NCBI RefSeq assembly: GCF_013315695.1
Contig: NZ_CP054353.1
Length of the DNA stretch: 64,000 bases
Origin: Escherichia coli
Lineage (GTDB): Bacteria > Pseudomonadota > Gammaproteobacteria > Enterobacterales > Enterobacteriaceae
Strand: one strand, 5' to 3'
Notes under the pieces: generated by a model
The model's database searches: none
What the model was told of the DNA's origin: nothing
The model's input: the letters and a program-made list of their open reading frames with translations, nothing else
In this document: piece after piece, positions 1 through 49,197 of the stretch
Layout of the letters: each line of letters begins with the position of its first letter
How positions within the stretch are numbered: position 1 is the stretch's first letter
Translations under genes and position numbers: made by a program

Positions 1-632
1 TGGGCACCGCAGCTGGCCCACATCCTTATCCGACCATTGTCCGTGAGTTTCAGCGAATGATTGGCGAAGAAACCAAAGCACAGATTCTGGAAAGAGAAGG
101 TCGCCTGCCGGATGCGGTTATCGCCTGTGTTGGCGGCGGTTCGAATGCCATCGGCATGTTTGCAGATTTCATCAACGAAACCGACGTCGGCCTGATTGGT
201 GTGGAGCCTGGCGGCCACGGTATCGAAACTGGCGAGCACGGCGCACCGTTAAAACATGGTCGCGTGGGCATCTATTTCGGTATGAAAGCGCCGATGATGC
301 AAACCGAAGACGGGCAAATTGAAGAGTCTTACTCCATTTCTGCCGGGCTGGATTTCCCGTCCGTCGGCCCGCAACATGCGTATCTCAACAGCACTGGACG
401 CGCTGATTACGTGTCTATTACCGACGATGAAGCCCTGGAAGCCTTTAAAACGCTTTGCCTGCATGAAGGGATCATCCCGGCGCTGGAATCCTCCCACGCC
501 CTGGCCCATGCGCTGAAAATGATGCGCGAAAATCCGGAAAAAGAGCAGCTATTGGTGGTTAACCTTTCCGGTCGCGGCGATAAAGACATCTTCACCGTTC
601 ACGATATTTTGAAAGCACGAGGGGAAATCTGA
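1..632 (+). CDS. trpB: tryptophan synthase beta chain, 3' portion (5' end outside window)
   Basis: Frame open from window edge; translated C-terminus (...[13 protein letters not shown]...NLSGRGDKD...) is TrpB-like; stop overlaps next start as TGATG. Confidence 0.9.
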
Positions 633-1438
633 TGGAACGCTACGAATCTCTGTTTGCCCGTTTGAAGGAGCGCAAAGAAGGCGCATTCGTTCCTTTCGTC
701 ACCCTCGGTGATCCGGGCATTGAGCAGTCGCTGAAAATTATCGATGCGCTAATTGAAGCCGGTGCTGACGCGCTGGAGTTAGGCATCCCCTTCTCCGACC
801 CACTGGCAGATGGCCCGACGATTCAAAACGCCACACTGCGTGCCTTTGCGGCAGGTGTGACCCCGGCGCAGTGCTTTGAGATGCTGGCACTCATTCGCCA
901 GAAACACCCGACCATTCCCATTGGCCTGCTGATGTATGCCAACCTGGTGTTTAACAAAGGCATTGATGAGTTTTATGCCCAGTGCGAAAAAGTCGGCGTC
1001 GATTCGGTGCTGGTTGCCGATGTGCCCGTGGAAGAGTCCGCGCCCTTCCGCCAGGCCGCGTTGCGTCATAATGTCGCACCTATCTTTATCTGCCCGCCAA
1101 ATGCCGATGACGACCTGCTGCGCCAGATAGCCTCTTACGGTCGTGGTTACACCTATTTATTGTCGCGTGCGGGCGTGACCGGCGCAGAAAACCGCGCCGC
1201 GTTACCCCTCAATCATCTGGTCACGAAGCTGAAAGAATACAATGCTGCGCCTCCATTGCAGGGATTTGGTATTTCCGCCCCGGATCAGGTAAAAGCAGCG
1301 ATTGATGCAGGAGCTGCGGGCGCGATTTCTGGTTCGGCCATCGTTAAAATCATCGAGCAACATATTAATGAGCCAGAGAAAATGCTGGCGGCACTGAAAG
1401 CTTTTGTACAACCGATGAAAGCGGCGACGCGCAGTTAA
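632..1438 (+). CDS. trpA: tryptophan synthase alpha chain
   Basis: 268-aa [32 protein letters not shown]...; start overlaps trpB stop. Confidence 0.95.
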
Positions 1439-1445
1439 TCCCACA

Positions 1446-1472
1446 GCCGCCAGTTCCGCTGGCGGCATTTTT
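1446..1472 (+). terminator. intrinsic terminator after trpA (trp t)
   Basis: Stem GCCGCCAG/CTGGCGGC with 5-nt loop followed by a T-run, directly after the trpA stop. Confidence 0.7.
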
Positions 1473-1818
1473 ACTTTCTTTAACGAAGCCGGAAAAATCC
1501 TAAATTCATTTATTATTTATCTTTTTACCGTTTCGCTTACCCCTGTCGAACGTCAACTTACGTCTTTTTTCCGCCCAACAGTAATATAATCAAACAAATT
1601 AATCCCGCAACATAACACCAGTAAAGTCAATAATTTTCTCTAAGTCACTTATTCCTCAGGCAATTGTTAATATATCCAGAATGTTCCTCAAAATATATTT
1701 TTCCTCTTTTTTCTCGTTACGCTTAATTTGACTAATTCTCATTTGCGACTAATTTTAATGAGTGTCGACACACAACACTCATATTAATCAAACAATGCAG
1801 CGCAACGGGAGAAATAAC

Positions 1819-1998
1819 ATGGCCGAACATCGTGGTGGTTCAGGAAATTTCGCCGAAGACCGTGAGAAGGCATCCGACGCAGGCCGTAAAGGCGGTCAGC
1901 ATAGCGGCGGTAATTTTAAAAATGATCCGCAACGCGCATCTGAAGCAGGTAAAAAATGCGGTCAACAAAGCGGTGGTAATAAATCAGGAAAATCCTGA
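1819..1998 (+). CDS. yciG: small KGG-repeat stress protein
   Basis: 59-aa product MAEHRGGSGNFAEDREKASDAGRKGGQHSGGNF...; GGGAG 8 nt upstream; the ORF-track ORF starts earlier at 1762. Confidence 0.8.
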   Translation: MAEHRGGSGNFAEDREKASDAGRKGGQHSGGNFKNDPQRASEAGKKCGQQSGGNKSGKS

Positions 1999-2083
1999 TT
2001 CACCGTTCATTATTAATATCAGCTGATAAAGATAATTGCATCTGCGGGCCGTATGGCTCGCAGTGATTTCACTGGAGAAAAAT

Positions 2084-2584
2084 ATGAATATGAAGACCAT
2101 TGAAGATGTATTTATTCACCTGCTTTCAGACACCTACAGTGCAGAAAAACAATTAACACGTGCACTGGCAAAACTCGCTAGAGCAACATCAAACGAAAAA
2201 TTAAGTCAGGCTTTTCATGCGCACCTCGAGGAAACACATGGACAGATTGAACGTATTGATCAAGTTGTGGAATCAGAATCGAATCTGAAAATTAAGCGCA
2301 TGAAATGTGTGGCAATGGAAGGTCTTATTGAAGAAGCTAATGAGGTCATCGAAAGTACCGAGAAAAACGAAGTGCGTGATGCCGCACTGATTGCCGCAGC
2401 ACAGAAAGTCGAGCATTATGAGATTGCCAGTTACGGGACATTAGCGACGCTGGCTGAACAATTAGGTTACCGTAAAGCAGCTAAGCTTCTGAAAGAAACT
2501 CTTGAAGAAGAAAAGGCCACCGACATCAAACTAACTGATCTGGCCCTTAATAACGTAAATAAGAAAGCCGAAAATAAAGCCTGA
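2084..2584 (+). CDS. yciF: ferritin-like stress protein YciF
   Basis: 166-aa product from MNMKTIEDVFIHLLSDTYSAEKQ...; ORF-track ORF extends upstream to 2036. Confidence 0.85.
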   Translation: MNMKTIEDVFIHLLSDTYSAEKQLTRALAKLARATSNEKLSQAFHAHLEETHGQIERIDQVVESESNLKIKRMKCVAMEGLIEEANEVIESTEKNEVRDAALIAAAQKVEHYEIASYGTLATLAEQLGYRKAAKLLKETLEEEKATDIKLTDLALNNVNKKAENKA

Positions 2585-2629
2585 AATATGAACTTTAACT
2601 TTTAGTCATTTTATAAAGAGGACATTTTC

Positions 2630-2921
2630 ATGAATCGTATTGAACATTATCATGACTGGTTACGTGACGCCCACGCAATGGAAAAGCAAGCCGAATCTAT
2701 GCTTTAATCCATGGCCAGCCGTATAGATAATTATCCTGAACTACGCGCTCGTATTGAACAACATCTTAGTGAAACCAAAAACCGATTGTTCAACTGGAAA
2801 CTATTCTTGATCGTAATGACATTTCACGTTCAGTCATTAAAGATTCCATGAGTAAAATGGCTGCGCTTGGGCAGTCAATCGGTGGTATATTTCCTTCTGA
2901 TGAAATAGTCAAAGGCTCTAT
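2630..2921 (+). pseudogene. yciE: yciE remnant: in-frame stop, -1 frameshift and truncation by IS1
   Basis: ATG at 2630 gives MNRIEHYHDWLRDAHAMEKQAESML then TAA at 2705-2707; same frame continues SMASRIDNYPELRARIEQHLSETKN; homologous reading resumes in another frame (VQLETILDRNDISRSVIKDSMSKMAALGQSIGGIFPSDEIVKGS) and runs into the IS1 end at 2922. Confidence 0.7.
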
Positions 2922-2976
2922 GGTGATGCTGCCAACTTACTGATTTAGTGTATGATGGTGTTTTTGAGGTGCTCCA

Positions 2977-3252
2977 GTGGCTTCTGTTTCTATCAGCTGT
3001 CCCTCCTGTTCAGCTACTGACGGGGTGGTGCGTAACGGCAAAAGCACCGCCGGACATCAGCGCTATCTCTGCTCTCACTGCCGTAAAACATGGCAACTGC
3101 AGTTCACTTACACCGCTTCTCAACCCGGTACGCACCAGAAAATCATTGATATGGCCATGAATGGCGTTGGATGCCGGGCAACAGCCCGCATTATGGGCGT
3201 TGGCCTCAACACGATTTTACGTCACTTAAAAAACTCAGGCCGCAGTCGGTAA
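2977..3252 (+). CDS. insA: IS1 InsA
   Basis: 91-aa product [39 protein letters not shown]... Confidence 0.95.
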
Positions 3253-3674
3253 CCTCGCGCATACAGCCGGGCAGTGACGTCATCGTCTGCGCGGAAATGG
3301 ACGAACAGTGGGGCTATGTCGGGGCTAAATCGCGCCAGCGCTGGCTGTTTTACGCGTATGACAGGCTCCGGAAGACGGTTGTTGCGCACGTATTCGGTGA
3401 ACGCACTATGGCGACGCTGGGGCGTCTTATGAGCCTGCTGTCACCCTTTGACGTGGTGATATGGATGACGGATGGCTGGCCGCTGTATGAATCCCGCCTG
3501 AAGGGAAAGCTGCACGTAATCAGCAAGCGATATACGCAGCGAATTGAGCGGCATAACCTGAATCTGAGGCAGCACCTGGCACGGCTGGGACGGAAGTCGC
3601 TGTCGTTCTCAAAATCGGTGGAGCTGCATGACAAAGTCATCGGGCATTATCTGAACATAAAACACTATCAATAA
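3171..3674 (+). CDS. insB: IS1 InsB frame (expressed as InsAB' by -1 frameshifting)
   Basis: 167-aa frame overlapping the insA 3' end; sequence typical of IS1 transposase. Confidence 0.9.
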
Positions 3675-3888
3675 GTTGGAGTCATTACCGTGATAAACAT
3701 CCGGTTTCTTCCACCATCGCACCGGACAGGCGACTATGAGGGGACAACGCCGCGCTCCGTTAACGCGGTAAACCCCGGTGTGTATCGTTTTTGATTATCC
3801 CCGCACACTCGCGCAGAGGAGTCTCCCTGTCGGGCTGCGGTCTCTGTTAATGAGGGAATACAGCGACGATACGGCGCATCAACAAAAC

Positions 3889-4356
3889 TTATTTCAGGCA
3901 CTGAGTACGGATATATTCCTGCGCCCCTTCCAGTTGCTTCTGCATCGTCATCAGCCGCTCTCTGAGGGTGAAATAATCCCGTGTAACGGTGTCTGCCAGT
4001 TGGGGGCCGGTTGCATTATCCACGCGGGCGGTGCCGGTGGCTTCACGCACGGGACCTGGACAGGTGGCGTTGATACGCAGGCGCTTACGACCAGCGGCAA
4101 CGTCAGCGCGAAGAGTTTCATTTTCAGCTTTCGCATCAGCTAACTCCTTCGTGTATTTTGCATCGAGCGCAGCAACATCACGCTGACGCATCTGCATGTC
4201 AGTAATTGCCGCGTTCGCCAGCTTCAGTTCTCTGACATTTTTGTCGCGCTGGGCTTTGTAGGTAATGGCGTTATCACGGTAATGATTCAGCCCCAGACTA
4301 AGCGCACCACAGGCCACCAGCAGGGCAATGATGACCACGCACAGTACGCGGTTCAT
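3889..4356 (-). CDS. Rz i-spanin
   Basis: 155-aa product with N-terminal TM segment ([16 protein letters not shown]) and coiled-coil-like periplasmic part; contains an embedded Rz1 frame. Confidence 0.85.
3951..4136 (-). CDS. Rz1 o-spanin lipoprotein, embedded in Rz in another frame
   Basis: 61-aa frame with signal peptide plus lipobox-like LVVSAC and a proline-rich mature part. Confidence 0.7.
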
Positions 4357-4456: not shown

Positions 4457-4654
4457 CACTCGAATCTCCCGAATCAGTTTGCTAAAATCAAACACACTTT
4501 CTCCTTTGACTTTTCCGGAGTCAGGAAACACAAAACCCCGCTTGGTGCCAACAAACGGGGTTTTTACTTTTATTCACTTACGTTTCGCCAGTTCGCAGGA
4601 TTTCGTGTTATCCGCCCGCGTGGCCATGCCTTATTTTTCAGCAAAATATTCTGC

Positions 4655-5188
4655 TTATCTGTCGATTCCCCAGCACGCCAGCGCGCTCTCCTGGTCACGA
4701 CGGGATACCTGACCATAACAGTTGTTTGAGCGGATACGGCAGTCTCTGCCACCGTCCTTAATCCACCAGCGAATCGCCTCACACGCTCCCCTGCGATCAC
4801 CTGCATTAATTCGTTTATAAAACGTCGACGGGAAACACTTACCGGGACCAATGTTGTACGGACAGAATGACGCGATCCCCGCTTTCTGGGGTTCACTCAA
4901 TGGCACTCTGATGTTTTTCTCCACCCATGCCAGCGCCTCATCACGCTCAATGGCGTTAACCCGGTCGCATTTTTCCTTCGACAACTTCATGCCCGGAACG
5001 ACAGGTTTGCCATCCACCAGGATGGCACCGCGGCAGATGGTCCAGATACCCGCACCATCACGGTATGCCGTGGTGTGGTTACCTTCCTTTTCATCCAGAA
5101 ACTGGTCGAGAATGTCAGGCGCAGGCGCACCAGCGGCAATCAGCGCCAGAACGGCAGCCGACAGGCCGTATCTGATTTTTGCGTTCAT
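4655..5188 (-). CDS. SAR endolysin (phage lysozyme, T4-lysozyme family)
   Basis: 177-aa product; N-terminal weakly hydrophobic signal-anchor-release segment (YGLSAAVLALIAAGAPAP) followed by a lysozyme-like domain. Confidence 0.85.
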   Translation of the reverse strand: MNAKIRYGLSAAVLALIAAGAPAPDILDQFLDEKEGNHTTAYRDGAGIWTICRGAILVDGKPVVPGMKLSKEKCDRVNAIERDEALAWVEKNIRVPLSEPQKAGIASFCPYNIGPGKCFPSTFYKRINAGDRRGACEAIRWWIKDGGRDCRIRSNNCYGQVSRRDQESALACWGIDR

Positions 5189-6246: not shown

Positions 6247-8100
6247 TTATGATGATGCCGGTGCATTTATCTCCAGCACCAGACTTTCTATCTCAACGCC
6301 ATACGCTGCATTTTTGGTAATATCCGTCAGCGTCAGCGCATTCAGCCCCAGTGTCAGACTGTCTTTTATGACCTGGAATGCCGGGCCAGCCACTCCATTC
6401 AGTTTCGGAGTAACCGTGGCACTGCCGGCGGTGAACACCAGCTCCAGCGTCTGCCAGTCGTTACTGTAATTCCCGAACTCGCCCAACTTTGTGTTTCCTG
6501 CTTTCTTGTGATGCATCAGATTCAGTTTGCCGTCTGTGGTCTGGGTGAAGAACGACATCAGGAACGGGTTACCAGTCCCGGTCATCGCCACGACGTCAGG
6601 TAACGCTACATCGGTATACAGATAAATTCCCAGACCGAACTGGTTGTTGGTCAGTGCGCCTGACAGTCGAAACTTACAGCTCAGTCTGCCACCCCGTGTC
6701 AGCAGGGAGACTGCGTCATCCACCGGGCGCGTCAGGGACCAGGCTTTATTGCTCTGCTTGGTGATCTTAAATACACCATCTGACAACTGAATTCCGCCAT
6801 TCTTAATGCTCCAGCCCTGCGCAGCAGCGTCTCCGGCTGTCGGCAACAGGGAGATTGTGCGTATGGATGCATCTTCAGACGGCCCCGATGGCGTGTCGCC
6901 GCCGGGCGAGGGTTTGATTTCCGGTGCCTTACCACTAATGAAGGCTAAGGTGCGACCGGCTACGTTCAGAATAGCAGTTGCCATACGATCGGGAATAATG
7001 CCACGACGCGCCCATGAGCTGAAATGCGTCGGGCGATTTGATGATACCCAGTTTTTGTTCGTTCGGGATGCCGAACCGTAATAACCAGACCCGGCAATAT
7101 CAGGATCTTCTGACGGGTTGTTTGTCGGTGTATTAACTCCGCTACCATCGGTCATAAAGGGAACAAAATAAATCTGCTGGGATTCTTTACCTTTATATGC
7201 ACCATATACCACTTCATATTGCGTACCGTGTTCTTGTTTCCACGCGTATGTCGTGTCGCCACAAATCCAGGGGACTGATGCCGGACTTCCACCGTGACAC
7301 TGCGCCGCCAGCCCGGCAAGGTCAGCACGGAACTGCTGTACCATTGCAAGAAATGCTGCTGGCTGCTGGGCGTAACTGGCATTCGTCATATCGAATTCCC
7401 CCTGCATCCAGCATATCGCCAGCAAAACGTTTTTCGGGTTTTTCTGCAATGCTGCCTTCGTGCGGAAAAGCAGATCCTGATATAACGGCTTACCCACTCC
7501 CCAGCGAGCCGAATCCTGACTGGCTCCCGTGGACTCGCTGAATGTCCCCTCCGTGCCCTGGGTGAATGCCGAACCACCACGACAGCATGGTACCAGCAGG
7601 ATCCCCGCATTATTAGGGATATACGGAAGCAGTTTTTTGGCAATATGTAAGCCCTGTCCGACACAGCCGTACTGCCCTTTGCTCAGGTCAGCCCGGGGAT
7701 GGTTAATCGTACTCATATCCTGAACATCATGCAGACAATGGTCAGCAGGAATGATGTCGTTAAATACGCATACTTCACCACCGGGAGTCACTGTGTTACG
7801 ACGGGCCAGTTGCTTAATGCGCGGATGGGGCGCATCGTATGAATCCGGAAGCGGAAGCCCTTCACCGTAAGCCATGGCATTGGATTGCCCGGCCAGTACG
7901 ATGACGTAGTACCACTCCGGCTCAGTTGCACCACTGACGACCACATCACCTTCTGCTGCAATCGCCTGCATCAGGGTATAAGGGGTTATGGCCACCGGAC
8001 TACCAAACGGCTGCCAGCCCTCCTTCAGTTTTTGTGTCAGTCGTTTCGCAAGGTCTGACGGCGATGCCGCCCTGACCACGTCATAGTGTTTAAATGCCAT
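6247..8100 (-). CDS. prophage sialate O-acetylesterase-like SGNH hydrolase (NanS-p-like)
   Basis: 617-aa product; LAGQSNAMAYGEG block typical of SASA/SGNH esterases; GGGAGGA SD 5 nt upstream; position between tRNA genes and holin as in Stx-type lambdoid phages. Confidence 0.65.
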   Translation of the reverse strand: MAFKHYDVVRAASPSDLAKRLTQKLKEGWQPFGSPVAITPYTLMQAIAAEGDVVVSGATEPEWYYVIVLAGQSNAMAYGEGLPLPDSYDAPHPRIKQLARRNTVTPGGEVCVFNDIIPADHCLHDVQDMSTINHPRADLSKGQYGCVGQGLHIAKKLLPYIPNNAGILLVPCCRGGSAFTQGTEGTFSESTGASQDSARWGVGKPLYQDLLFRTKAALQKNPKNVLLAICWMQGEFDMTNASYAQQPAAFLAMVQQFRADLAGLAAQCHGGSPASVPWICGDTTYAWKQEHGTQYEVVYGAYKGKESQQIYFVPFMTDGSGVNTPTNNPSEDPDIAGSGYYGSASRTNKNWVSSNRPTHFSSWARRGIIPDRMATAILNVAGRTLAFISGKAPEIKPSPGGDTPSGPSEDASIRTISLLPTAGDAAAQGWSIKNGGIQLSDGVFKITKQSNKAWSLTRPVDDAVSLLTRGGRLSCKFRLSGALTNNQFGLGIYLYTDVALPDVVAMTGTGNPFLMSFFTQTTDGKLNLMHHKKAGNTKLGEFGNYSNDWQTLELVFTAGSATVTPKLNGVAGPAFQVIKDSLTLGLNALTLTDITKNAAYGVEIESLVLEINAPASS

Positions 8101-8294
8101 GAATCCTCCCGGGCGGGATAATGTTGTGAGTCAGATAAGGAGCAGGCTGAAGTCCGGAAGTTACAGGACAATGGCAGAAGGGAGACTACAGCCCGCAATT
8201 CGAAAAAGACCGCGCAGTTGCGCAGAGTGATTACTATGGGGTATTATTCGCCAGCTGAAATATTACTTCACGTTTTATTGTTTATTCCTTGCCG

Positions 8295-8322
8295 CCCGCG
8301 TCTCCCAGCGCGGGCTTTTTTT
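8295..8322 (+). terminator. plus-strand intrinsic terminator
   Basis: CCCGCG-loop-CGCGGG hairpin followed by a T7 run. Confidence 0.4.
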
Positions 8323-8325
8323 GTC

Positions 8326-8562
8326 CATAAGAAAGCCCCTCCGGAGAGGGGCTAAAGCCGCGTATCTGTATCATCATGCACATGGTGCCGGGTGCCTCCC
8401 GGTGAGTTCAGCCCGGTGCCACTAAACCCGCGTCATTCTCGTTTTGATAATCAGAGATTATACCGTCACCAGTCGCCCCTCCGCTCAGGGGGATTCACCA
8501 TGCGAAATTTTTTTAACAAATGCCCAGTCTGACAGGCAACTGTCAACTTACTGAATTGTGAG
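8326..8562. repeat. direct repeat copy A (about 237 bp) in the late operon
   Basis: Shares with copy B the blocks AAAGCCCCTCCGGAGAGGGGCT, CATGGTGCCGGGTGCCTCCCGGTGA, GCCCCTCCGC-CAGGGGGATTCACCATGC, TTTTAACAAA and CTGAATTGTGAG. Confidence 0.6.
8335..8352 (-). terminator. hairpin GCCCCTC-CGGA-GAGGGGC with downstream U-rich tract on the minus strand (repeat A)
   Basis: Perfect 7-bp GC stem; in minus orientation followed by TTTCTT. Confidence 0.45.
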
Positions 8563-8812
8563 CAACATAGCATTTAACGGGGAACCTGTTTTCTGCAGTA
8601 AAAAGGCCCACCGGAGCGGATGGGCCTGGAAGGATAGCGGTCATGTGATGCCGGTTTCCCGGTAACTCAGCACCGGTATCTGAGTCAACGTTTTCTCTAC
8701 TGGGTCATTTCCGATACGCCCTGCCTGCTGACAGGCTTTCATCACATCTGAAAATATAGCACCCTGACTGATACTGTAGTACCTAAGGTTCCAGAAACTG
8801 TGATGTATCCGG

Positions 8813-9038
8813 CACAGAAAAGCCCCTCCGGAGAGGGGCTGGAGAGTGGCGCTATGTGCCATTGCATGGTGCCGGGTGCCTCCCGGTGAATTCAGTACCA
8901 GCACCTGAATCCGCGATTATCCCATATACCTACTCGCTGATTGCCCCTCCGCACAGGGGGATTCACCATGCCAGTTTCTTTTAACAAACTCCCCGCAAAC
9001 CAGACAACAGTCAACCGCCTGAATTGTGAGACATTTAA
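8813..9038. repeat. direct repeat copy B
   Basis: Imperfect copy of repeat A about 480 bp away. Confidence 0.6.
8822..8839 (-). terminator. hairpin GCCCCTC-CGGA-GAGGGGC with downstream U-rich tract on the minus strand (repeat B)
   Basis: Same hairpin as copy A; in minus orientation followed by TTTTCT. Confidence 0.45.
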
Positions 9039-9074
9039 AAAAAGCCCGCAAAAGCGAGCCAGGGAAAATAAGTG

Positions 9075-9151
9075 TGGCGCGTTGTACTGGATTCGAACCA
9101 GTGACCGATTGCTTAGAAGGCAATTGCTCTGTCCGGCTGAGCTAACAACGC
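9075..9151 (-). tRNA. tRNA-Arg (anticodon UCU)
   Basis: Manual fold of the reverse complement: acceptor GCGTTGT/ACAACGC, D-arm GCTC/GAGC, anticodon stem ATTGC/GCAAT with loop CTTCTAA, T-arm ACTGG-TTCGAAT-CCAGT, discriminator G, CCA encoded. Confidence 0.8.
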
Positions 9152-9164
9152 AGGATACAGATAA

Positions 9165-9241
9165 TGGACCGCCTTCGGGGACCCGAACTCCGCGCAACCA
9201 GCTTCGAAAGCTGGCGCTCTTTCCTGATGAGCTAATGGCGG
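9165..9241 (-). tRNA. tRNA-like gene, Arg-type (anticodon UCG by manual fold), possibly degenerate
   Basis: D-arm TAGCTCATCAGGAAAGAGC, anticodon stem CCAGC/GCTGG with loop TTTCGAA, CCA encoded; one mismatch in the acceptor stem and one in the T stem; T-loop TTCGGGT is non-consensus. Confidence 0.5.
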
Positions 9242-9248
9242 TATGTGA

Positions 9249-9324
9249 TGGTGGCCCTTGCTGGATTTGAACCAGCGACCTGGCGATTATGAGTCGCTCG
9301 CTCTCACCACTGAGCTAAAGGGCC
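9249..9324 (-). tRNA. tRNA with CAU anticodon, ileX-like (tRNA-Ile2/lysidine type; could be Met)
   Basis: Acceptor GGCCCTT/AAGGGCC perfect, anticodon loop CTCATAA, T-arm GCTGG-TTCAAAT-CCAGC, discriminator A, CCA encoded; closely resembles E. coli ileX from memory. Confidence 0.8.
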
Positions 9325-9373
9325 GGGAGCAGAATAATAATGGTGCGTAATTAATTCTGCAATCTCATCCGTT

Positions 9374-23593: not shown

Positions 23594-23842
23594 ATGGCAA
23601 GACTTATTCTGCTCACTGAGTGGGCAAAAGAGGAATTCAGTGAACCGGTCCCTACTCCGAGTACGTTAAGTAAATACGCTAAAGCCGGAATGATATTTCC
23701 TCTCCCCAAAAAAGTTGGAAGACGCTGGCGAGTGGATCCGCAAGCTCGCTTTGTCGGAATGGTAAACAAGCCGGAGGTGATCGCCACAGATCACCCTGCT
23801 TTGAAGAGGATACTGGAAGATGGCGCGCCCGCGAAAATATAA
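23594..23842 (+). CDS. xis: excisionase (Xis-like)
   Basis: 82-aa ORF immediately upstream of and overlapping the integrase gene; contains ...GMIFPLPKKVGRRWRVDP... Confidence 0.6.
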   Translation: MARLILLTEWAKEEFSEPVPTPSTLSKYAKAGMIFPLPKKVGRRWRVDPQARFVGMVNKPEVIATDHPALKRILEDGAPAKI

Positions 23843-24950
23843 AACCGATGTTCCGGGATTATCTCCGTATTTTGACAAAAGAAATAACAAAGTTTACTGG
23901 CGTTACAGGCATCCCATAACAGGCAAAAATCACGGTCTCGGCAGTATTGACCAGAAACTGGCAGAAACTATTGCAGCAGAAGCGAACAGCCGTCTTGCCC
24001 GGCAGCAAATGGAACAAATGCTCAGTCTGCAGGAGAAAATTATTAGTGATACCGGCGGTTCATCAACCGTTACCATTTTTCTGAATAATTACAGAAAAAT
24101 TCAACAGGAAAGATATGAAAACGGCGAGATCAAACTCAACACGCTGAAACAGAAAGCAGCTCCTCTCAGGGTATTTGATGAACGTTTTGGCACCAGACCG
24201 TTAGATGCCATAACCGTAAAAGATGTGGTATCAGTACTGGAAGAGTACAAGGCCAGAGGACATAACAGAATGGGACAAATTTTCAGGAAAGTACTGATCG
24301 ATGTTTTCCGGGAAGCTCAGCAAACGGGCGATGTCCCGCCAGGCTTTAACCCTGCAGAATCGGCAAAAAAACCGCAGGTGCGGATATCAAGACAGCGACT
24401 GACTTTTGATGAGTGGATGATGATTTATAACGCAGCGGAAAAGGATGGTTACTTTTTACAGCGCGGTATGCTGCTGGCACTGATGACAGGCCAGCGCCTT
24501 TCAGATATTTGCAAAATGCAATTTTCGGATATCCGGGATGGTTATCTTCATGTCGAACAGCAAAAAACAGGAACCCGGATTGCCATCCCTCTGGCTCTGC
24601 GTTGCGATAAATTAAATCTCACCCTGGATGATGTGGTGTCATCCTGCCGCGATTGCGTTCTTAGTCCGTGGCTATTGCACCACCATCACGCGAAAGGGAC
24701 AGCTAAGCGCGGCGGGATGGTTAAGCCAGCAACATTAACCGTTGCATTTAAAAAAGCCCGGGATTCTGTGGATTACAACTGGCGTGCTAATGGCACCCCT
24801 CCCTCTTTCCATGAGCAGAGATCTTTATCAGAGCGATTGTTCAGAGAGCAGGGGGTTGATACCAAAATTTTGCTAGGCCATTCGAATCAAAAAATGACCG
24901 ATATTTACAACGACGCACGCGGTAAGGAATGGAAAAAACTGGTCATTTGA
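23820..24950 (+). CDS. int: tyrosine site-specific integrase (lambda Int family)
   Basis: 376-aa product; C-terminal catalytic-domain pattern (...RLSDICKMQFSDI...HEQRSLSERLF...LLGHSNQKMTDIY...) consistent with a tyrosine recombinase. Confidence 0.9.
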   Translation: MARPRKYKTDVPGLSPYFDKRNNKVYWRYRHPITGKNHGLGSIDQKLAETIAAEANSRLARQQMEQMLSLQEKIISDTGGSSTVTIFLNNYRKIQQERYENGEIKLNTLKQKAAPLRVFDERFGTRPLDAITVKDVVSVLEEYKARGHNRMGQIFRKVLIDVFREAQQTGDVPPGFNPAESAKKPQVRISRQRLTFDEWMMIYNAAEKDGYFLQRGMLLALMTGQRLSDICKMQFSDIRDGYLHVEQQKTGTRIAIPLALRCDKLNLTLDDVVSSCRDCVLSPWLLHHHHAKGTAKRGGMVKPATLTVAFKKARDSVDYNWRANGTPPSFHEQRSLSERLFREQGVDTKILLGHSNQKMTDIYNDARGKEWKKLVI

Positions 24951-24984
24951 TGACCAGTTTTGCAGAGGGGTTTTGCAGAGAAAA
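24951..24984. other. prophage-host junction (att region) between int stop and ompW stop
   Basis: 34-bp spacer containing the direct repeat TTTTGCAGAG x2; preceded by palindrome GGTCATTTGATGACC spanning the int stop. Confidence 0.4.
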
Positions 24985-25623
24985 TTAAAAACGATATCCT
25001 GCGGAGAACATAAACACCCACGGATCCAGTCGTACCGAGTCTTTTACGGTAGTAACACCAGATTTGTACTTAGCCGTGGTATCGATATCCATGTACCACA
25101 CTGACATGTTAACCAACCAGTCACGGTTAATCAGATAATCAACCCCCACCTGCCCGGCAGCTCCCCAGGAATCTTTCAGACTGAGATCGGAAAGCCCCGC
25201 CTCTTTGCCATGATCGTTAAATCCATTATCAAAGAAGGTGGTGTAGTTAATACCTGCCCCAACGTAAGGACGGAATTTGCTGCTGGCATCACCAAAATAC
25301 CACTGCGCCATCAGTGTTGGCGGCAGATGATGAACGGTTGCAATATCGCCGGTCGCCCGGGTGCCGATTTTATGGCGGAACGGCGTCGCAGCCAGTAATT
25401 CCACACCAATGTTGTCGGTCGCCATATAAGTAAACGTCAGGCCCAGTTGCGTGTTATTGGTCACGCTGAATCCACCCAGACTTCCTAACGTACCACCAGC
25501 ACCTTCTGTTGGACGTACGGTTGCAGACCCTGCACGCATAAAAAATTCGCCTGCTTCATGCGCATAGGCACTGCCAGAGAGAAGAGTTGTTACTGCCAAA
25601 GCCGCCACTGTTAACTTTTTCAT
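24985..25623 (-). CDS. ompW: outer membrane protein W
   Basis: 212-aa product MKKLTVAALAVTTLLSGSAYA... ending ...FSAGYRF; ORF-track ORF extends upstream to 25701. Confidence 0.95.
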   Translation of the reverse strand: MKKLTVAALAVTTLLSGSAYAHEAGEFFMRAGSATVRPTEGAGGTLGSLGGFSVTNNTQLGLTFTYMATDNIGVELLAATPFRHKIGTRATGDIATVHHLPPTLMAQWYFGDASSKFRPYVGAGINYTTFFDNGFNDHGKEAGLSDLSLKDSWGAAGQVGVDYLINRDWLVNMSVWYMDIDTTAKYKSGVTTVKDSVRLDPWVFMFSAGYRF

Positions 25624-29069: not shown

Positions 29070-29221
29070 ATAAATTAAATATTATTTAAATTCAAAGCAA
29101 TAACGAAAGACAGTCAACATAATCAATAATAAAGGGCGCATTTAAGTACACATTAATCTAAGCGCCCCTTTTTTTTCGCTACGACTTATACTTTCAGTCT
29201 GACATCTGGCTGGAGGTTTCT

Positions 29222-29479
29222 ATGTGCGGACGCTTTTCACAGTCAATGACGCGTGAAGACTATCTCGCCCTTCTCGCAGATGAAGTCGAGCAAGACATTC
29301 CATATGACCCTGAACCGATCGGACGTTTCAACGTTGCGCCAGGCACCAAAGTTCTGCTTCTGAGCGAACGTGACGAGAAACTCCATCTTGATCCAGTTTT
29401 CTGGGGATACGCCCCGGATGGTGGGATAAACCTGGATTTTTACACATACCAAAGACAGATTAGATACTCTACTAATTAG
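29222..29479 (+). pseudogene. 5' fragment of an SRAP/YedK-family gene (about 70 codons), truncated
   Basis: MCGRFSQSMTREDYLALLADEVEQDIPYDPEPIGRFNVAPGTKVLLLSERDEKLHLDPVFWGYAP then unrelated AT-rich sequence and a stop; full-length family members are about 220 aa. Confidence 0.6.
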
Positions 29480-29587
29480 ATTTTAAACTCATGATTAGTA
29501 AGAGAGACTACCATGATTTATTTAACCAAAATGTCATTTTGTGATATTCTGCATAAAAGTTCATTATTCTAGAGATAGAGCATTAAT

Positions 29588-31381
29588 ATGAGTATCGGTT
29601 TGAGCAAAGTCGTTACAAGATATAAAAACTTAAAGTTGAAATCATATGTTTTCGACATTGTCAACGTTATGTTTTTATTGTACTTATTTTGTTTTCTAAA
29701 TCAGTCAATAGTTATCATAGGAAATATTGAACCGCCTAAAGAGTTAATTGGTGCAATATTGAATTTCATCTGGCGTTCATCCCCCATTTTGTTTATTTAT
29801 TTGTTATTTAGAATAATAAACATTCCAATTTTTCTATGTTCTTATTTATCAGGCATCGCAATTATAACATTGATGTTTGTGAACAGTACTAAAATGGCGT
29901 TAACCGGTGAGCCTTTATCATTTAATGACATTGTTTCTGGATTCAATTTGAGTGTCGCAGGAAAATACCTCAACTTATCATCCATTACTTACTCTGTCGC
30001 TATTCTAATTGGCGCAATAATCTCAATCCTACTTAGCAAAAAAACGGTCACAACAAGAAAAAATTATATATCGTTATTTCTTTTAATTATCATTACGATC
30101 CCCTTTTCATTCTACCCCTATATTGGAACCATTTTTAGCCCTAACAATAGGATTTCTGAAATCATAAACTCCAGCGCGAACAACTTAAATATAAAATATA
30201 TTTACTGGAATTGGTCTCAAAATATTGGCGTTAATGGCTTGCCAATGCATATAATACAAACAAGTGTCAGAAAATCTGTACCACATGCAACTGATGCAGA
30301 ACAATTAAGATATTTAGATGAAAAAAGATCTTTAGTATCCACTCATATAAAAAATAAAACCATTATTTATGTTTTATGTGAATCATGTTGGTATGATAAA
30401 AAAAACTTCCGAGAAAATTTCAAACCTGTTATTGATGAAGGTTACAGTGAATTACGGGCCATCTCACCAGTTTACGGTGGAGGTACCGCAAATGCCGAAT
30501 TTGAAATGCTGACAGGACTACCAAGTAATTCAGATAAAATATCAGGAATCATCTATCAAGAATATTCAGATGCATTCAAACCAAAAGTTGACGCATTACC
30601 TAATGCCCTGAAAAACAAAGGCTATATTACTTTCGCAGCACATAATTACCAAGCAGACTTTTGGTATAGGAATAAAATTTACCCTAAATTTGGATTTGAT
30701 AGATTTGATAGCATTATTAATATGGGAGATTTACCACCAGAGTATAGCAGTATTAAAAAACCATGGCAGTGGCAACCTGATGACTACCTGCTTTACAATG
30801 CAGCATTAAAAGCCATCCAAAATGCAGGAAACAAAGATATTTTTGTACATTTGATCACTATGTCAACTCATGGTCCTTATCAACACATTAATGATTATGG
30901 TGAAGGTGTTTATACCTATGAGATTAATGAGGCAGTCAAAAGATTCGTTCAATTTTCACAGCAAGTAGAAAAAATAGATCCAAATGCTGTAATCGTCTTT
31001 TACGGTGACCATAAACCACCACTAAATAAATATTTCGTCGAAAATGGGGTGCTACCAAGTAATATTTTCAACAAAATCGGAGAAGAAAAAGATGAAGATT
31101 TCGTCTTTAAAATGAGCACAACCCCACTCGATTTTGGTGATGTTCCTGTGCTTATTAAATCAAATGATAAAGACGCCATTAAAAAATTCATAACCGACGC
31201 CAATGGAAAACCTTTTTTCTGTGTATCTTCATTAGTTGATAAACATTTCATTCAATCTGGATTGGTATCATTTAATCACAACGCAAAGCATGTCTGTGAA
31301 AACAGTGATAACTTTAATTATGATAAGTTAATTAACATGACCCCGTCGTGGATTTATTCAATGTCATTATTTCACGATTAG
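29588..31381 (+). CDS. sulfatase-superfamily membrane protein (LTA-synthase / phosphoethanolamine-transferase-like), AT-rich
   Basis: 597-aa product; N-terminal multi-TM region, C-terminal domain with YVLCESCW and STHGPYQH motifs; codon usage strongly AT-biased. Confidence 0.6.
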   Translation: MSIGLSKVVTRYKNLKLKSYVFDIVNVMFLLYLFCFLNQSIVIIGNIEPPKELIGAILNFIWRSSPILFIYLLFRIINIPIFLCSYLSGIAIITLMFVNSTKMALTGEPLSFNDIVSGFNLSVAGKYLNLSSITYSVAILIGAIISILLSKKTVTTRKNYISLFLLIIITIPFSFYPYIGTIFSPNNRISEIINSSANNLNIKYIYWNWSQNIGVNGLPMHIIQTSVRKSVPHATDAEQLRYLDEKRSLVSTHIKNKTIIYVLCESCWYDKKNFRENFKPVIDEGYSELRAISPVYGGGTANAEFEMLTGLPSNSDKISGIIYQEYSDAFKPKVDALPNALKNKGYITFAAHNYQADFWYRNKIYPKFGFDRFDSIINMGDLPPEYSSIKKPWQWQPDDYLLYNAALKAIQNAGNKDIFVHLITMSTHGPYQHINDYGEGVYTYEINEAVKRFVQFSQQVEKIDPNAVIVFYGDHKPPLNKYFVENGVLPSNIFNKIGEEKDEDFVFKMSTTPLDFGDVPVLIKSNDKDAIKKFITDANGKPFFCVSSLVDKHFIQSGLVSFNHNAKHVCENSDNFNYDKLINMTPSWIYSMSLFHD

Positions 31382-31731
31382 TATCTAGAAAATAATTGTA
31401 ATAAATCATCATTAATTATGTAGACGCCTAAAATTAGGCATCTACATTTTATTAGAAAAGAGGTTGTCCTGACTAGGTTGTGGAAATGTGCATCGCATAA
31501 ATCAAGGCTATAGAGCATGAAAGTGCGTTCTTCCCCCTCTACCATTGATAAATATTTAAAAGTGCTCACGCTGGATTCGATCCAGGCATTAGCATCTTTG
31601 AGTGAGAATTCCCAGTTAACTTTGCTCAACCCCTGAACAAATCGCTGTGTAGTGACGGTCTTCCGGCCATTCGGCTCTTGCTGTATCGAAGAATACCAGG
31701 CTATTTCAATATCGCTGCGTCGTGGCATCAT
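31378..31731 (-). CDS. hypothetical protein (117 aa), possibly a gene fragment
   Basis: ATG pair with GAGGG upstream; divergent from the dinI-like gene; ORF-track ORF extends to 31977. Confidence 0.35.
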   Translation of the reverse strand: MMPRRSDIEIAWYSSIQQEPNGRKTVTTQRFVQGLSKVNWEFSLKDANAWIESSVSTFKYLSMVEGEERTFMLYSLDLCDAHFHNLVRTTSFLIKCRCLILGVYIINDDLLQLFSRY

Positions 31732-31771
31732 TACGCCCTCTCTTGAATACCGGATAAAAACACAGTATAAA

Positions 31772-31791
31772 TACTGTATATACACCCAGTA
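31772..31791. promoter_or_regulatory. LexA (SOS) box upstream of the dinI-like gene
   Basis: TACTGTATATACACCCAGTA: CTGT-N8-CCAG, one mismatch from the CTGT-N8-ACAG core; overlapping palindrome ACAGTATAAATACTGT just upstream. Confidence 0.6.
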
Positions 31792-31806
31792 AAGAGGCAA
31801 TGAGCA

Positions 31807-32034
31807 ATGTTCGTGGAACTCGTTTATGGCAAAAGGAATTTTGATGGACTGCCCGGTGCAAAAGATATCATTCTGGGCGAGTTGACCAAGAGGGTTCACC
31901 GGATTTTCCCCGGCGCTGATGTCCGGGTTAAACCGATGATGACATTGCCGGCGATCAACACTGACGCCAACAAGCATGAGAATGAACAGATAAGCCGTAC
32001 TGTTCAGGAAATGTTTGAAGAGACTGATATGTAG
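31807..32034 (+). CDS. DinI-like protein
   Basis: 75-aa product MFVELVYGKRNFDGLPGAKDIILGELTKRVHRIFPGADVRVKPMMTLPAINTDANKHENEQISRTVQEMFEETDM; AGAGG RBS; LexA box upstream. Confidence 0.7.
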   Translation: MFVELVYGKRNFDGLPGAKDIILGELTKRVHRIFPGADVRVKPMMTLPAINTDANKHENEQISRTVQEMFEETDM

Positions 32035-32122
32035 CTGTTTTCAGATTAAACGCCTTGAACCGTCACACTGATTAAGTACAATCCGGCGTGGTTGCGGCTT
32101 CCAGATTATAAGAATGATTCCC

Positions 32123-32550
32123 TTACTCACTTTTCAGCGCATTCACTTCTTCTCGTAATTCACTGAGTTCGTTCATTAGTACCAGAATCGCTTCATGATG
32201 CAACGCTGCCGCAACGCCGTAAGTATCTGGAGAGAGTACTCCTTCCACCATAGTTCCATCAGGAAGTTGACGATCACCTCCCTCAGTTACTGCCTGGGGG
32301 AAGATTTTCTTAACATCCTGCGCGATAAACCCAATCCCCCATTGTCCGGTATCTTTTCGCGTCCAGGAACAACCTTTTAGCATTTCCATCTTACTGAGCG
32401 GGTCTCCAATTCTGGACACTCCATCTTTCAGGCGGCCATCTGAATTCGGAACCCATGCTCCAGGCGCTACAGCGTTACCAGTTGATTTCATAAAGCTCCA
32501 TGTGGTTCCTGAGCTTGCGTTTGCTACCTGAATATTCCCTGATAAAGAAC
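32123..32550 (-). pseudogene. C-terminal fragment of a phage tail-fibre protein (intramolecular chaperone-type domain), 5' end removed by IS insertion
   Basis: ...GQWGIGFIAQDVKKIFPQAVTEGGDRQLPDGTMVEGVLSPDTYGVAAALHHEAILVLMNELSELREEVNALKSE; the frame runs upstream into the IS inverted repeat. Confidence 0.6.
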
Positions 32551-33473
<923 letters not shown>

Positions 33474-33602
33474 GTATCGGTAGAAAAAAGAAACTTTACC
33501 AGCCTGACTGATCCTTGCGTTCAGCCCATGAGAATCTGAAATGGTTTCGATATCATCTCGTTTCTTGCCCAGGGACTTCCTGAGCTTTGTGTCGGTAATC
33601 AT
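33474..33602 (-). pseudogene. N-terminal fragment (43 codons) of a P4-type integrase, cut by the IS element
   Basis: [43 protein letters not shown] resembles the DUF4102-type N-terminus of P4-family integrases; frame runs into the IS right end. Confidence 0.5.
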
Positions 33603-34105
33603 TGAATGTGTACACATCTGGCTTGCGAGTACGCAAAAGTGTACACAAAACTCGTTGCTCAAAGATACCCGCAATGTAACACTTGTACTCGAAGTGTGAT
33701 GGCTTAGGGGCTGAAAGGCAGATGGCGTAAGGGTTCAACGTAACAGAACGTTTTTATGCGAAATTCTTCGAAATGGTCTGAATGACATTTTAAGAAAGTG
33801 TTCTGAATAGAAATTCAATATTTAAGGGCACGGTTTTTGCAACCGTGTTCTTGTTTGGCCTTTCCTTATAGGTCGGTCAGTGCATTCACCACCACAAGCA
33901 GATAATAACTTTATCTGTATTTCTTTATATGATGTGAACATATTCAGGAAAATGCCCTTTCCTGACGCAGAGTTGCTCACTCAAAACCTTTGATTACTGC
34001 GGATAAAGTCATCTACTATTGTTTAACACATTCACGCGCTGCATGTATGTTCAGAAAATGTGCACGTTGAGATAATTAAACAAAATTGTGGTTACAGAGG
34101 TATCA

Positions 34106-47771: not shown

Positions 47772-49197
47772 TAATGCCAGTCAGTTAAGCAACTGACTGG
47801 CTCTTTTTCGGGGCTGTGGGGTATTTCCAGGGCCTCTCCTTTACCACTCTCGGGAAGGCCCTTTCCCTTCTTGTCGGTAATTTCACAAGTTGTCCCATAC
47901 TTGCAAGATCGCGCATCAGCTCCGGTATACGTCCCGGTGAAGCGCCCTGCAATGTCATCAGCATTCTCATCACCATTCCGCATGATTCTGAGAAACTCAG
48001 TTGATTCGGCCAGTAACCTTTCAGATGTTCCGCCATTTTAATCATCTGATATCTCACCAGATTATAAGCCAGTAAGACACCCCACAGCTCTTGCTCCACA
48101 AGCTCCGGTTTTTTACTTCTCAGCGTCAGCCTGCTCAGTTGCATCGTCTGTTTTATCTCCCTGTATCCCAGTTCGATTTCCCAGCGATGACTGTACAGAT
48201 CCGCCATTTCTCCTCCGGGGAAGCGCATGGCGTCCGTCATCGACGTCAGCAGATGGCAGACTTTTCCTTTGCGCGTCACGGTCAGCAGGCGGGCTGTCAC
48301 TTCATTTCCCAGTCCCGGCCACTTTTTTCGTGCCTGCGGGCTGGTTTTCAGCTTCACCAGATGATCGCCTTTACCCAGTTTTCTGATCTCTTCATATTGC
48401 GCTCCCTTTCTGAGAGGTATCATCCAGTGGCGGTGTTCTCCCGCCAGGCTCCAGGCATTTAACAGTCCCAGTGAGTAATAACCTTTATCCATTAACGTCA
48501 GAGTGTTATCGCCGGTTTGTTCTATAAGTTGCTCAGCAAGCTCATTTTCGCTGTTCTTCATCGTGCCGAAGGCTGCAGCCGTCAGCAGATGGCTGGTCAG
48601 TTCCATCTGGCAGACCATTTTGACCTGCGGGTAGAGCGCCGGGTTCCCGGCATGTGTCTGGCGGGGGAAGGCTGCATCGTTCTCTGGTGTATCCGGTGTG
48701 CGCCAGAACACACCATCGATGGCCAGCAGGGTCAGGCCGCACCAGTGCGGATGCGGCGTGGCGTTATGCCAGAGCTGCGCTGTTTTCGTGAACACGCGGC
48801 GGACAGCCTCACTTCCCAGGCGCTGGCGGGCCTGAATAACGGCACTGGGGGCAACGAAGGGGCGATTGCCCGGCAGCATGATGTCCAGGCGATTCACAAT
48901 CTGGTGAAGAGGTTCTTTACGCTCAAGCGCCATGCCAACAATACACCAGACCATCATTTCGAGGGGAAGACGGCGCTTGCGTAGCGTTACAGTACCTGAT
49001 TCGGCAAGGCAACGAGAGATGAGTTCGGGGTCGAGGTAATCCCCCAGAGAAGTCAGTGGGTTACGCAGAGAATCGTAACGGGATACCAGATCAAGAGCCT
49101 GTCCAATGTGCATAAAAAAATCCGGAAACAAGTGAGCGTTTCCGGATTCTTACACAGCCACTGGATCGGTCAACTGATCCTTAACTGATCGGCATTA
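47772..49197 (-). mobile_element. IS4 insertion sequence (1426 bp) with 12-bp target-site duplication
   Basis: Terminal inverted repeats TAATGCCAGTCAGTTAAG... (47772-) and ...CTTAACTGATCGGCATTA (-49197); TCCCTTCTGGGG present on both flanks (47760-47771 and 49198-49209). Confidence 0.9.
47785..49113 (-). CDS. insG: IS4 transposase
   Basis: 442-aa product [40 protein letters not shown]...; ORF-track ORF adds 6 upstream codons. Confidence 0.9.

Follow-up and report, generated by a model that had tools for sequence, protein, structure and literature searches.

The window, a 64,000-nucleotide stretch of Escherichia coli DNA, carries a complete IS1 element of the IS1A type at the boundary between a truncated yciE gene and a lambdoid prophage remnant (Table 1). 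The element is 768 bp long and has the family's imperfect terminal inverted repeats of ~23 bp, the insA and insB′ frames and an A6C frameshift site, and its open reading frames match the InsA zinc-ribbon/HTH and IS1 DDE domains of Pfam, namely Zn_ribbon_InsA (PF03811), HTH_Tnp_IS1 (PF12759) and DDE_Tnp_IS1 (PF03400; 2e-78), as well as the NCBIfam transposase model transpos_IS1 (NF033558). The equivalent copy in the genome of strain MSB1_4I is annotated by PGAP as 'IS1A family transposase, programmed frameshift'. The 64-kb window contains no second IS1 copy, no reciprocal junction and no repeat of 100 bp or longer.

One family feature, a flanking 9-bp direct duplication, is missing from this copy. 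The 9 bp on its left read AGGCTCTAT and the 9 bp on its right GTGATAAAC; the IS1 ends are not bordered by direct repeats, however short. Simple IS1 insertions used as controls have perfect 9-bp duplications, CCCCAACGT in ompW of GPEC1258 and AGGCTCTAT in 510016; as the 510016 copy occupies the same site as the window copy, the missing duplication does not speak against IS1 identity, and it is expected for an IS1 copy that later mediated a deletion. A sequence-only reading had described positions 2913–3698 as an IS1 without target-site duplication, placed between yciE and phage DNA about 200 bp from Rz. Re-inspection bears out each element of that description: the interval is IS1 with 9 bp added at either end, these flanks differ, the left flank is the yciE fragment at 2630–2921, the right flank is lambdoid prophage DNA, and the Rz stop codon lies 199 bp from the IS1 end.

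Table 1 Features at the IS1 junction, in the prophage remnant and at two comparison loci; positions are those of the window unless a locus is named
Feature	Position	Strand	Basis or remark
yciE pseudogene fragment, 292 nt, corresponding to nt 1–293 of the 507-nt gene	2630–2921	+	Alignment with yciE of GPEC1258, CE10 and 510016
AGGCTCTAT, remaining left-hand copy of the 9-bp target-site duplication made on insertion	2913–2921	+	Comparison with 510016 and CE10
Complete IS1 (IS1A type), 768 bp	2922–3689	+	Inverted-repeat matches, Pfam, NCBIfam
IRL, GGTGATGCTGCCAACTTACTGAT	2922–2944		One match in window, 0 mismatches; chance expectation 0
insA	2977–3252	+	Frame intact
insB′ frame	3171–3674	+	Intact
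A6C frameshift motif AAAAAAC	3228–3234		Programmed −1 frameshift site, intact
IRR	3667–3689		One match in window, 0 mismatches; chance expectation 0
GTGATAAAC, first phage bases past IRR, distal deletion end	3690–3698	+	
Lambdoid prophage remnant, ~21.3 kb	3690 to ~24990		MSB1_4I annotation; collinearity with CE10
Rz spanin gene, last phage gene before the junction	3889–4356	−	Pfam PF03245 Phage_lysis, 4e-51
Phage lysozyme gene (R), intact	4655–5188	−	Pfam PF00959, 2e-23
Phage integrase gene, adjoining ompW	23820–24950	+	MSB1_4I annotation mapped; same protein accession as CE10
Sole remaining att-region copy, ompW 3′ end at attL	24983–25103		Match to CE10 attR segment
CE10 yciE	L007 5004–5510		W10* stop
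510016 IS1	L005 4202–4969		Same yciE nucleotide and orientation as in the window

To the right of IS1, the remnant keeps Rz, lysozyme, holin, a nanS-p-like esterase, three tRNAs, a DNA methyltransferase, Q and RusA, followed by replication genes, an immunity region, dicB, exo, xis and int. It thus has the composition of a defective lambdoid prophage: early, regulatory and lysis genes are kept, packaging, head and tail genes are absent, and the second att site and cos are lost. The 12-mer of the lambda cohesive end adjoins the small terminase gene (terS) in AF3, APEC O18 and CE10; the window has no lambda-type cos 12-mer. For the attR segment of CE10 there is one match in the window (24983–25103, 80% identity), so a single att site is left. 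Excision of the remnant by Int/Xis is impossible because only one att site remains, and packaging from cos is impossible because cos is gone. Nor can the remnant build virions; it is typical of cryptic lambdoid prophages that have become fixed.

The late region at 6247–9330 has the layout of an Stx phage, with Q, methyltransferase, tRNA-Ile/Arg/Arg, nanS-p-like SASA esterase, holin, lysozyme and Rz. The ~1-kb gap that separates the tRNAs from the esterase gene contains no stx, and its open reading frames have no Pfam match, on which ground we rejected an stx remnant at this position. Five clustered transitions at window positions 4628, 4715, 4718, 4730 and 4733 set the window apart from both MSB1_4I and AF3, to which it is nearly identical elsewhere; four of the five fall in the lysozyme gene, all synonymous, and the cluster looks like a short gene-conversion tract from the paralogous lysis module of another prophage.

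We compared the locus with 5,426 complete E. coli genomes and with metagenome contigs. MSB1_4I (NZ_LR898874.1) is the sole genome of the 5,426 that is collinear with the window across the whole junction, at 99.9% identity. Its gene order runs trpB-trpA-yciG-yciF-yciE′-IS1-Rz-lysozyme-holin-esterase-three tRNAs-methyltransferase-Q-RusA and then from replication genes through the immunity region to dicB-exo-xis-int-ompW-yciC. Over the first 12,000 positions there are 8 differences between the window and MSB1_4I, so the junction is present in two independent sequences. The right junction, in which IS1 is followed directly by GTGATAAAC, likewise occurs in 1 of the 5,426 complete genomes, MSB1_4I, and the metagenome scan gave 0 matches to the exact right junction. 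The left junction was found in the same scan in two contigs (L009 and L010), both of which stop 55–69 bases into IS1.

Related strains preserve earlier states of the locus. In CE10 (NC_017646.1) there is no IS1 at this position; a full-length yciE is followed by attR, a 126-bp displaced fragment of the ompW 3′ end, and then by a whole prophage at the ompW site with complete tail, head, portal and terminase genes. This prophage is collinear with the window and 99.6% identical to it over 25.4 kb, encodes the same integrase and excisionase proteins, and AGGCTCTAT is present once in the CE10 locus. Strain 510016 (NZ_CP025851.1) carries IS1 in yciE with AGGCTCTAT on both sides and with both yciE halves kept, the structure of a simple insertion. 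Bases 1–3689 of the window recur without any difference in AF3 (NZ_OZ547117.1), including the nonsense and frameshift mutations of yciE and all 768 of 768 bases of IS1. To the right of IRR, AF3 continues into the right end of the prophage, with VapA/VapB-family and YkgJ-family genes, and then into the whole morphogenesis module. Relative to CE10, AF3 lacks 704 bp comprising yciE nucleotides 294–507, the intergenic spacer, attR and 306 bp from the tip of the prophage.

The CE10 prophage has itself acquired an IS3-family element, which separates cos/terS from the YlcI/YnfO gene (L008 29232–30445). With the IS1 of the window, this means that sister prophage copies have been struck by different IS elements.

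Alignment of these states defines exactly what the window has lost. Collinearity with AF3 and CE10 ends at window position 3689/3690, and the break in AF3 lies exactly at its own IRR. Relative to AF3, the window lacks 25,328 bp (L004 3735–29062) with 28 annotated genes, and it resumes at GTGATAAAC; the lost genes are right-end prophage cargo and tail, head, portal and terminase genes, and cos was lost with them. In the intact prophages of AF3 and APEC O18, GTGATAAAC occurs once, between Rz and a small hypothetical gene, and is preceded by CATCAATTAATA. The total missing DNA, compared with CE10 and AF3, is 704 + 25,328 = 26,032 bp, also absent from MSB1_4I, and takes in yciE nucleotides 294–507, the displaced, attR-forming ompW 3′ fragment and all prophage DNA from the right end to the point 199 bp past Rz. 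Neither blastn nor tblastx found a match to the AF3 structural module in the window. A relocated copy of the module would be expected at ~100% identity; at ≥99% identity the module is present in five genomes, and MSB1_4I is not among them. The missing DNA thus appears to be truly gone rather than moved elsewhere.

These comparisons uphold the further proposal of the sequence-only reading, that an IS1-mediated deletion removed the morphogenesis half of the prophage, its far att site and the 3′ end of yciE. CE10, AF3 and 510016 supply the intact and intermediate states from related strains. The reported absence of terminase, capsid and tail genes agrees with the annotation of the 99.9%-identical MSB1_4I, which has none between IS1 and int, and a search for the missing module and for other IS1 copies found the module neither in the window nor, at ≥99% identity, in MSB1_4I, and a single IS1 in the window.

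The junctions have one constant and one variable side. The left junction is the same in 510016, AF3, MSB1_4I and the window and in the two metagenome contigs. The right junction differs between AF3 and the window/MSB1_4I pair, and in each case it starts precisely where an intact IRR ends. One fixed end, one variable end and a nested series of losses are the signature of an IS1-mediated adjacent deletion. Consistent with this class of event, the IS is retained, complete and with its frames intact; the novel joint, and with it the deletion endpoint, coincides with the outer IS end; a resident precursor with its duplication exists in 510016; and a common left junction is paired with differing right junctions, after losses of 704 bp in AF3 and 26,032 bp in the window and MSB1_4I. 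Because a simple insertion with duplication survives in 510016, IS1 was resident in yciE before the deletion and did not arrive with it, and at least two nested deletions, of 704 bp (AF3) and 26 kb (window), started from the same IS1 end.

In the series of events that best accounts for these states, a lambdoid phage would have integrated in the 3′ end of ompW, beside the convergent gene yciE, and IS1 would have inserted in yciE after nucleotide 293, making the 9-bp duplication AGGCTCTAT. The IS1 transposase would then have joined the resident IRR end to more distant targets on the same chromosome, an intramolecular or 'abortive' transposition that yields an adjacent deletion, so that the interval between the IRR end and the target would be lost and IS1 and the left junction would stay unchanged. 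In AF3, such an event would have taken the 704 bp that held the yciE 3′ end, attR and the prophage tip; in the lineage of the window, the deletion would extend to GTGATAAAC, 199 bp past Rz, with another 25,328 bp gone. Under this adjacent-deletion model, GTGATAAAC is the 9-bp target of the deleting event. The anatomy, the earlier states and the exact breakpoints are observed directly; the 26 kb of the window may have gone in one step from the simple insertion or in two, by way of an AF3-like state. That the window carries a true IS1-anchored deletion, by whichever route, we regard as nearly certain; that transposase rather than RecA carried it out we infer and consider probable.

The alternative route is a RecA-dependent crossover between yciE::IS1 and a second IS1 in the same orientation, inserted at GTGATAAAC with its own duplication, that left one hybrid IS1. 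This predicts the structure observed, a complete IS1 with mismatched 9-bp flanks, and the two routes leave identical final products; because the IS1 copies of one genome often have the same sequence, a mosaic would not show, which counts against treating adjacent deletion as the sole fit. Recombination between IS copies is also a documented common cause of missing duplications (PMC11708052), and MSB1_4I and AF3 each have at least 40 places that match IS1, marking the lineage as IS1-rich, so that new insertions are frequent. However, this route demands an extra insertion for each deletion, including a separate one only 704 bp away for AF3, and among the 5,426 genomes and the metagenome contigs there is none in which IS1 occupies the phage site and the structural module is still present. 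Because no whole-prophage genome among the 5,426 has IS1 at the phage site, where TTAATAGTGATAAAC is followed by GTGATAAAC, no two-IS1 intermediate is seen; the lineage is sampled by three genomes only, and such an intermediate could be unsampled. We consider recombination between two IS1 copies possible but unlikely.

Adjacent deletion also has to be set against an error of assembly, a false join that runs from the left junction of one IS1 copy to the right junction of a different copy and leaves out 25 kb that the genome really contains. IS1 is multi-copy, repeats are classic sites of misjoining, and the two metagenome contigs break inside IS1. Yet the window shares its junction with MSB1_4I, a complete hybrid-type genome that is not identical to it (8 differences in 12,000 positions), MSB1_4I has the missing module nowhere at ≥99% identity, and on both sides the sequence otherwise keeps its collinearity with CE10 and AF3, making an artefact very improbable. 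A one-step event, in which IS1 arrived from elsewhere and deleted 26 kb at once with no prior IS1 in yciE, would resemble the duplication-free events proposed for IS5 and IS481 (PMC11708052), but is just as hard to sustain: AF3 has the identical yciE–IS1 left junction without the 25-kb deletion, 510016 has a simple insertion with duplication at the same junction, and the left junction recurs in two metagenome contigs, one of them with the 1-bp yciE deletion of the window. Intramolecular IS1 transposition can also yield inversions, but an inverted or transposed structural module, still present at another place in the genome, is barely conceivable given the retained ancestral order and orientation (trp-yciE on the left, Rz…int-ompW on the right), the single IS1 in 64 kb and the absence of the module from the window and, at ≥99% identity, from MSB1_4I.

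The yciE gene itself bears further damage. The window fragment has a GAA>TAA nonsense mutation at codon 26 (E26*; window position 2705) and a 1-bp deletion after position 2783, and PGAP annotates yciE in MSB1_4I and AF3 as 'frameshifted; internal stop; missing C-terminus'. Inactivation occurred separately in two lineages, through E26*, the 1-bp deletion and IS1 in the window, AF3 and MSB1_4I, versus W10* in CE10. Because two lineages lost the gene independently, the pattern suggests that yciE is dispensable in these strains. We considered the CE10 stop as a pseudogenization that predated IS1 and rejected this, as W10* differs from the E26* and frameshift of the window.

IS1 occupies the same yciE nucleotide in the same orientation in 510016, L009 and L010, in backgrounds that differ by 1–3.5%. 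We initially favoured independent insertions at a yciE hot spot, a reading encouraged by 510016, whose flanks are 3.5% diverged and whose IS1 differs at 3 positions. Both 510016 and L009 lack the yciE frameshift. L010 led us to give this reading less weight: it shares the 1-bp yciE deletion of the window and is identical to it over 2301–2629, but is ~3% diverged further upstream. Because of this mosaic pattern, one ancestral insertion, with flanks later reshuffled by recombination and followed by decay of the dead gene, would fit the sequences better than a hot spot. A broader proposal, that a single resident IS1 has been eroding a prophage step by step within a natural clade of E. coli, with the yciE::IS1 allele possibly spread between lineages by recombination, we offer as speculative. 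If the deletions were selected, for loss of virion production with immunity, lysis and cargo kept, the locus would record, as a natural time series, how one IS copy domesticated a prophage.

An IS1-anchored deletion that disables a prophage is a textbook phenomenon and raises no new mechanism or question. According to the account in PMC10569738, IS1-promoted adjacent deletions were first described by Reif & Saedler (1975) in the E. coli K-12 gal region. Large IS1-related chromosomal deletions around nfsB occur in clinical E. coli, for which adjacent deletion has been invoked (PMC10569738). As in these cases, IS1 at the window junction is intact, the deletions start exactly at the IS1 end and reach variable distal endpoints, tens of kilobases are lost and there is no target-site duplication. 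Unlike them, it is a natural case in which half a prophage was deleted, and precursor and intermediate are kept in public genomes rather than being laboratory-selected. In the long-term evolution experiment, duplication-free IS copies arose from adjacent deletions or IS–IS recombination, and adjacent deletions often start small and grow stepwise (PMC11708052). That work concerns the IS3 family and has frozen samples that give the order of events, whereas the window concerns IS1 and its deletion order has to be deduced.

The remnant also belongs to a class familiar from E. coli and Shigella. The cryptic prophages Rac, DLP12 and Qin of K-12 are defective lambdoid prophages. O157 Sakai carries a pool of defective prophages (PMC2669165). 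Like the K-12 and Sakai elements, the window remnant keeps early, regulatory and lysis genes and has lost morphogenesis genes through deletions and IS activity; unlike them, its disabling event, breakpoints and intact sister prophage are all identifiable. In contrast to several Sakai prophages, it also lacks cos and one att site, so that rescue by a helper phage would need recombination. The locus is a fully resolved natural example of how an insertion sequence makes an immobile remnant out of an intact prophage. It can serve teaching and the annotation of junctions, where an IS1 without target-site duplication marks a deletion scar, and the ompW-site prophage of the window strain should be scored as defective.

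Two other features lie elsewhere in the window. A 4.7-kb insertion between yciI and kch (29084–33788), absent from CE10, is what is left of another prophage or island, much decayed, and contains an integrase Arm-domain fragment, an IS3-family transposase, a tail-fibre-domain gene, a DinI-like gene, an LTA-synthase-family gene and an SOS-response peptidase fragment. An IS4 copy adjoins adhE at about 47796–49142, as mapped to the window from the MSB1_4I annotation.
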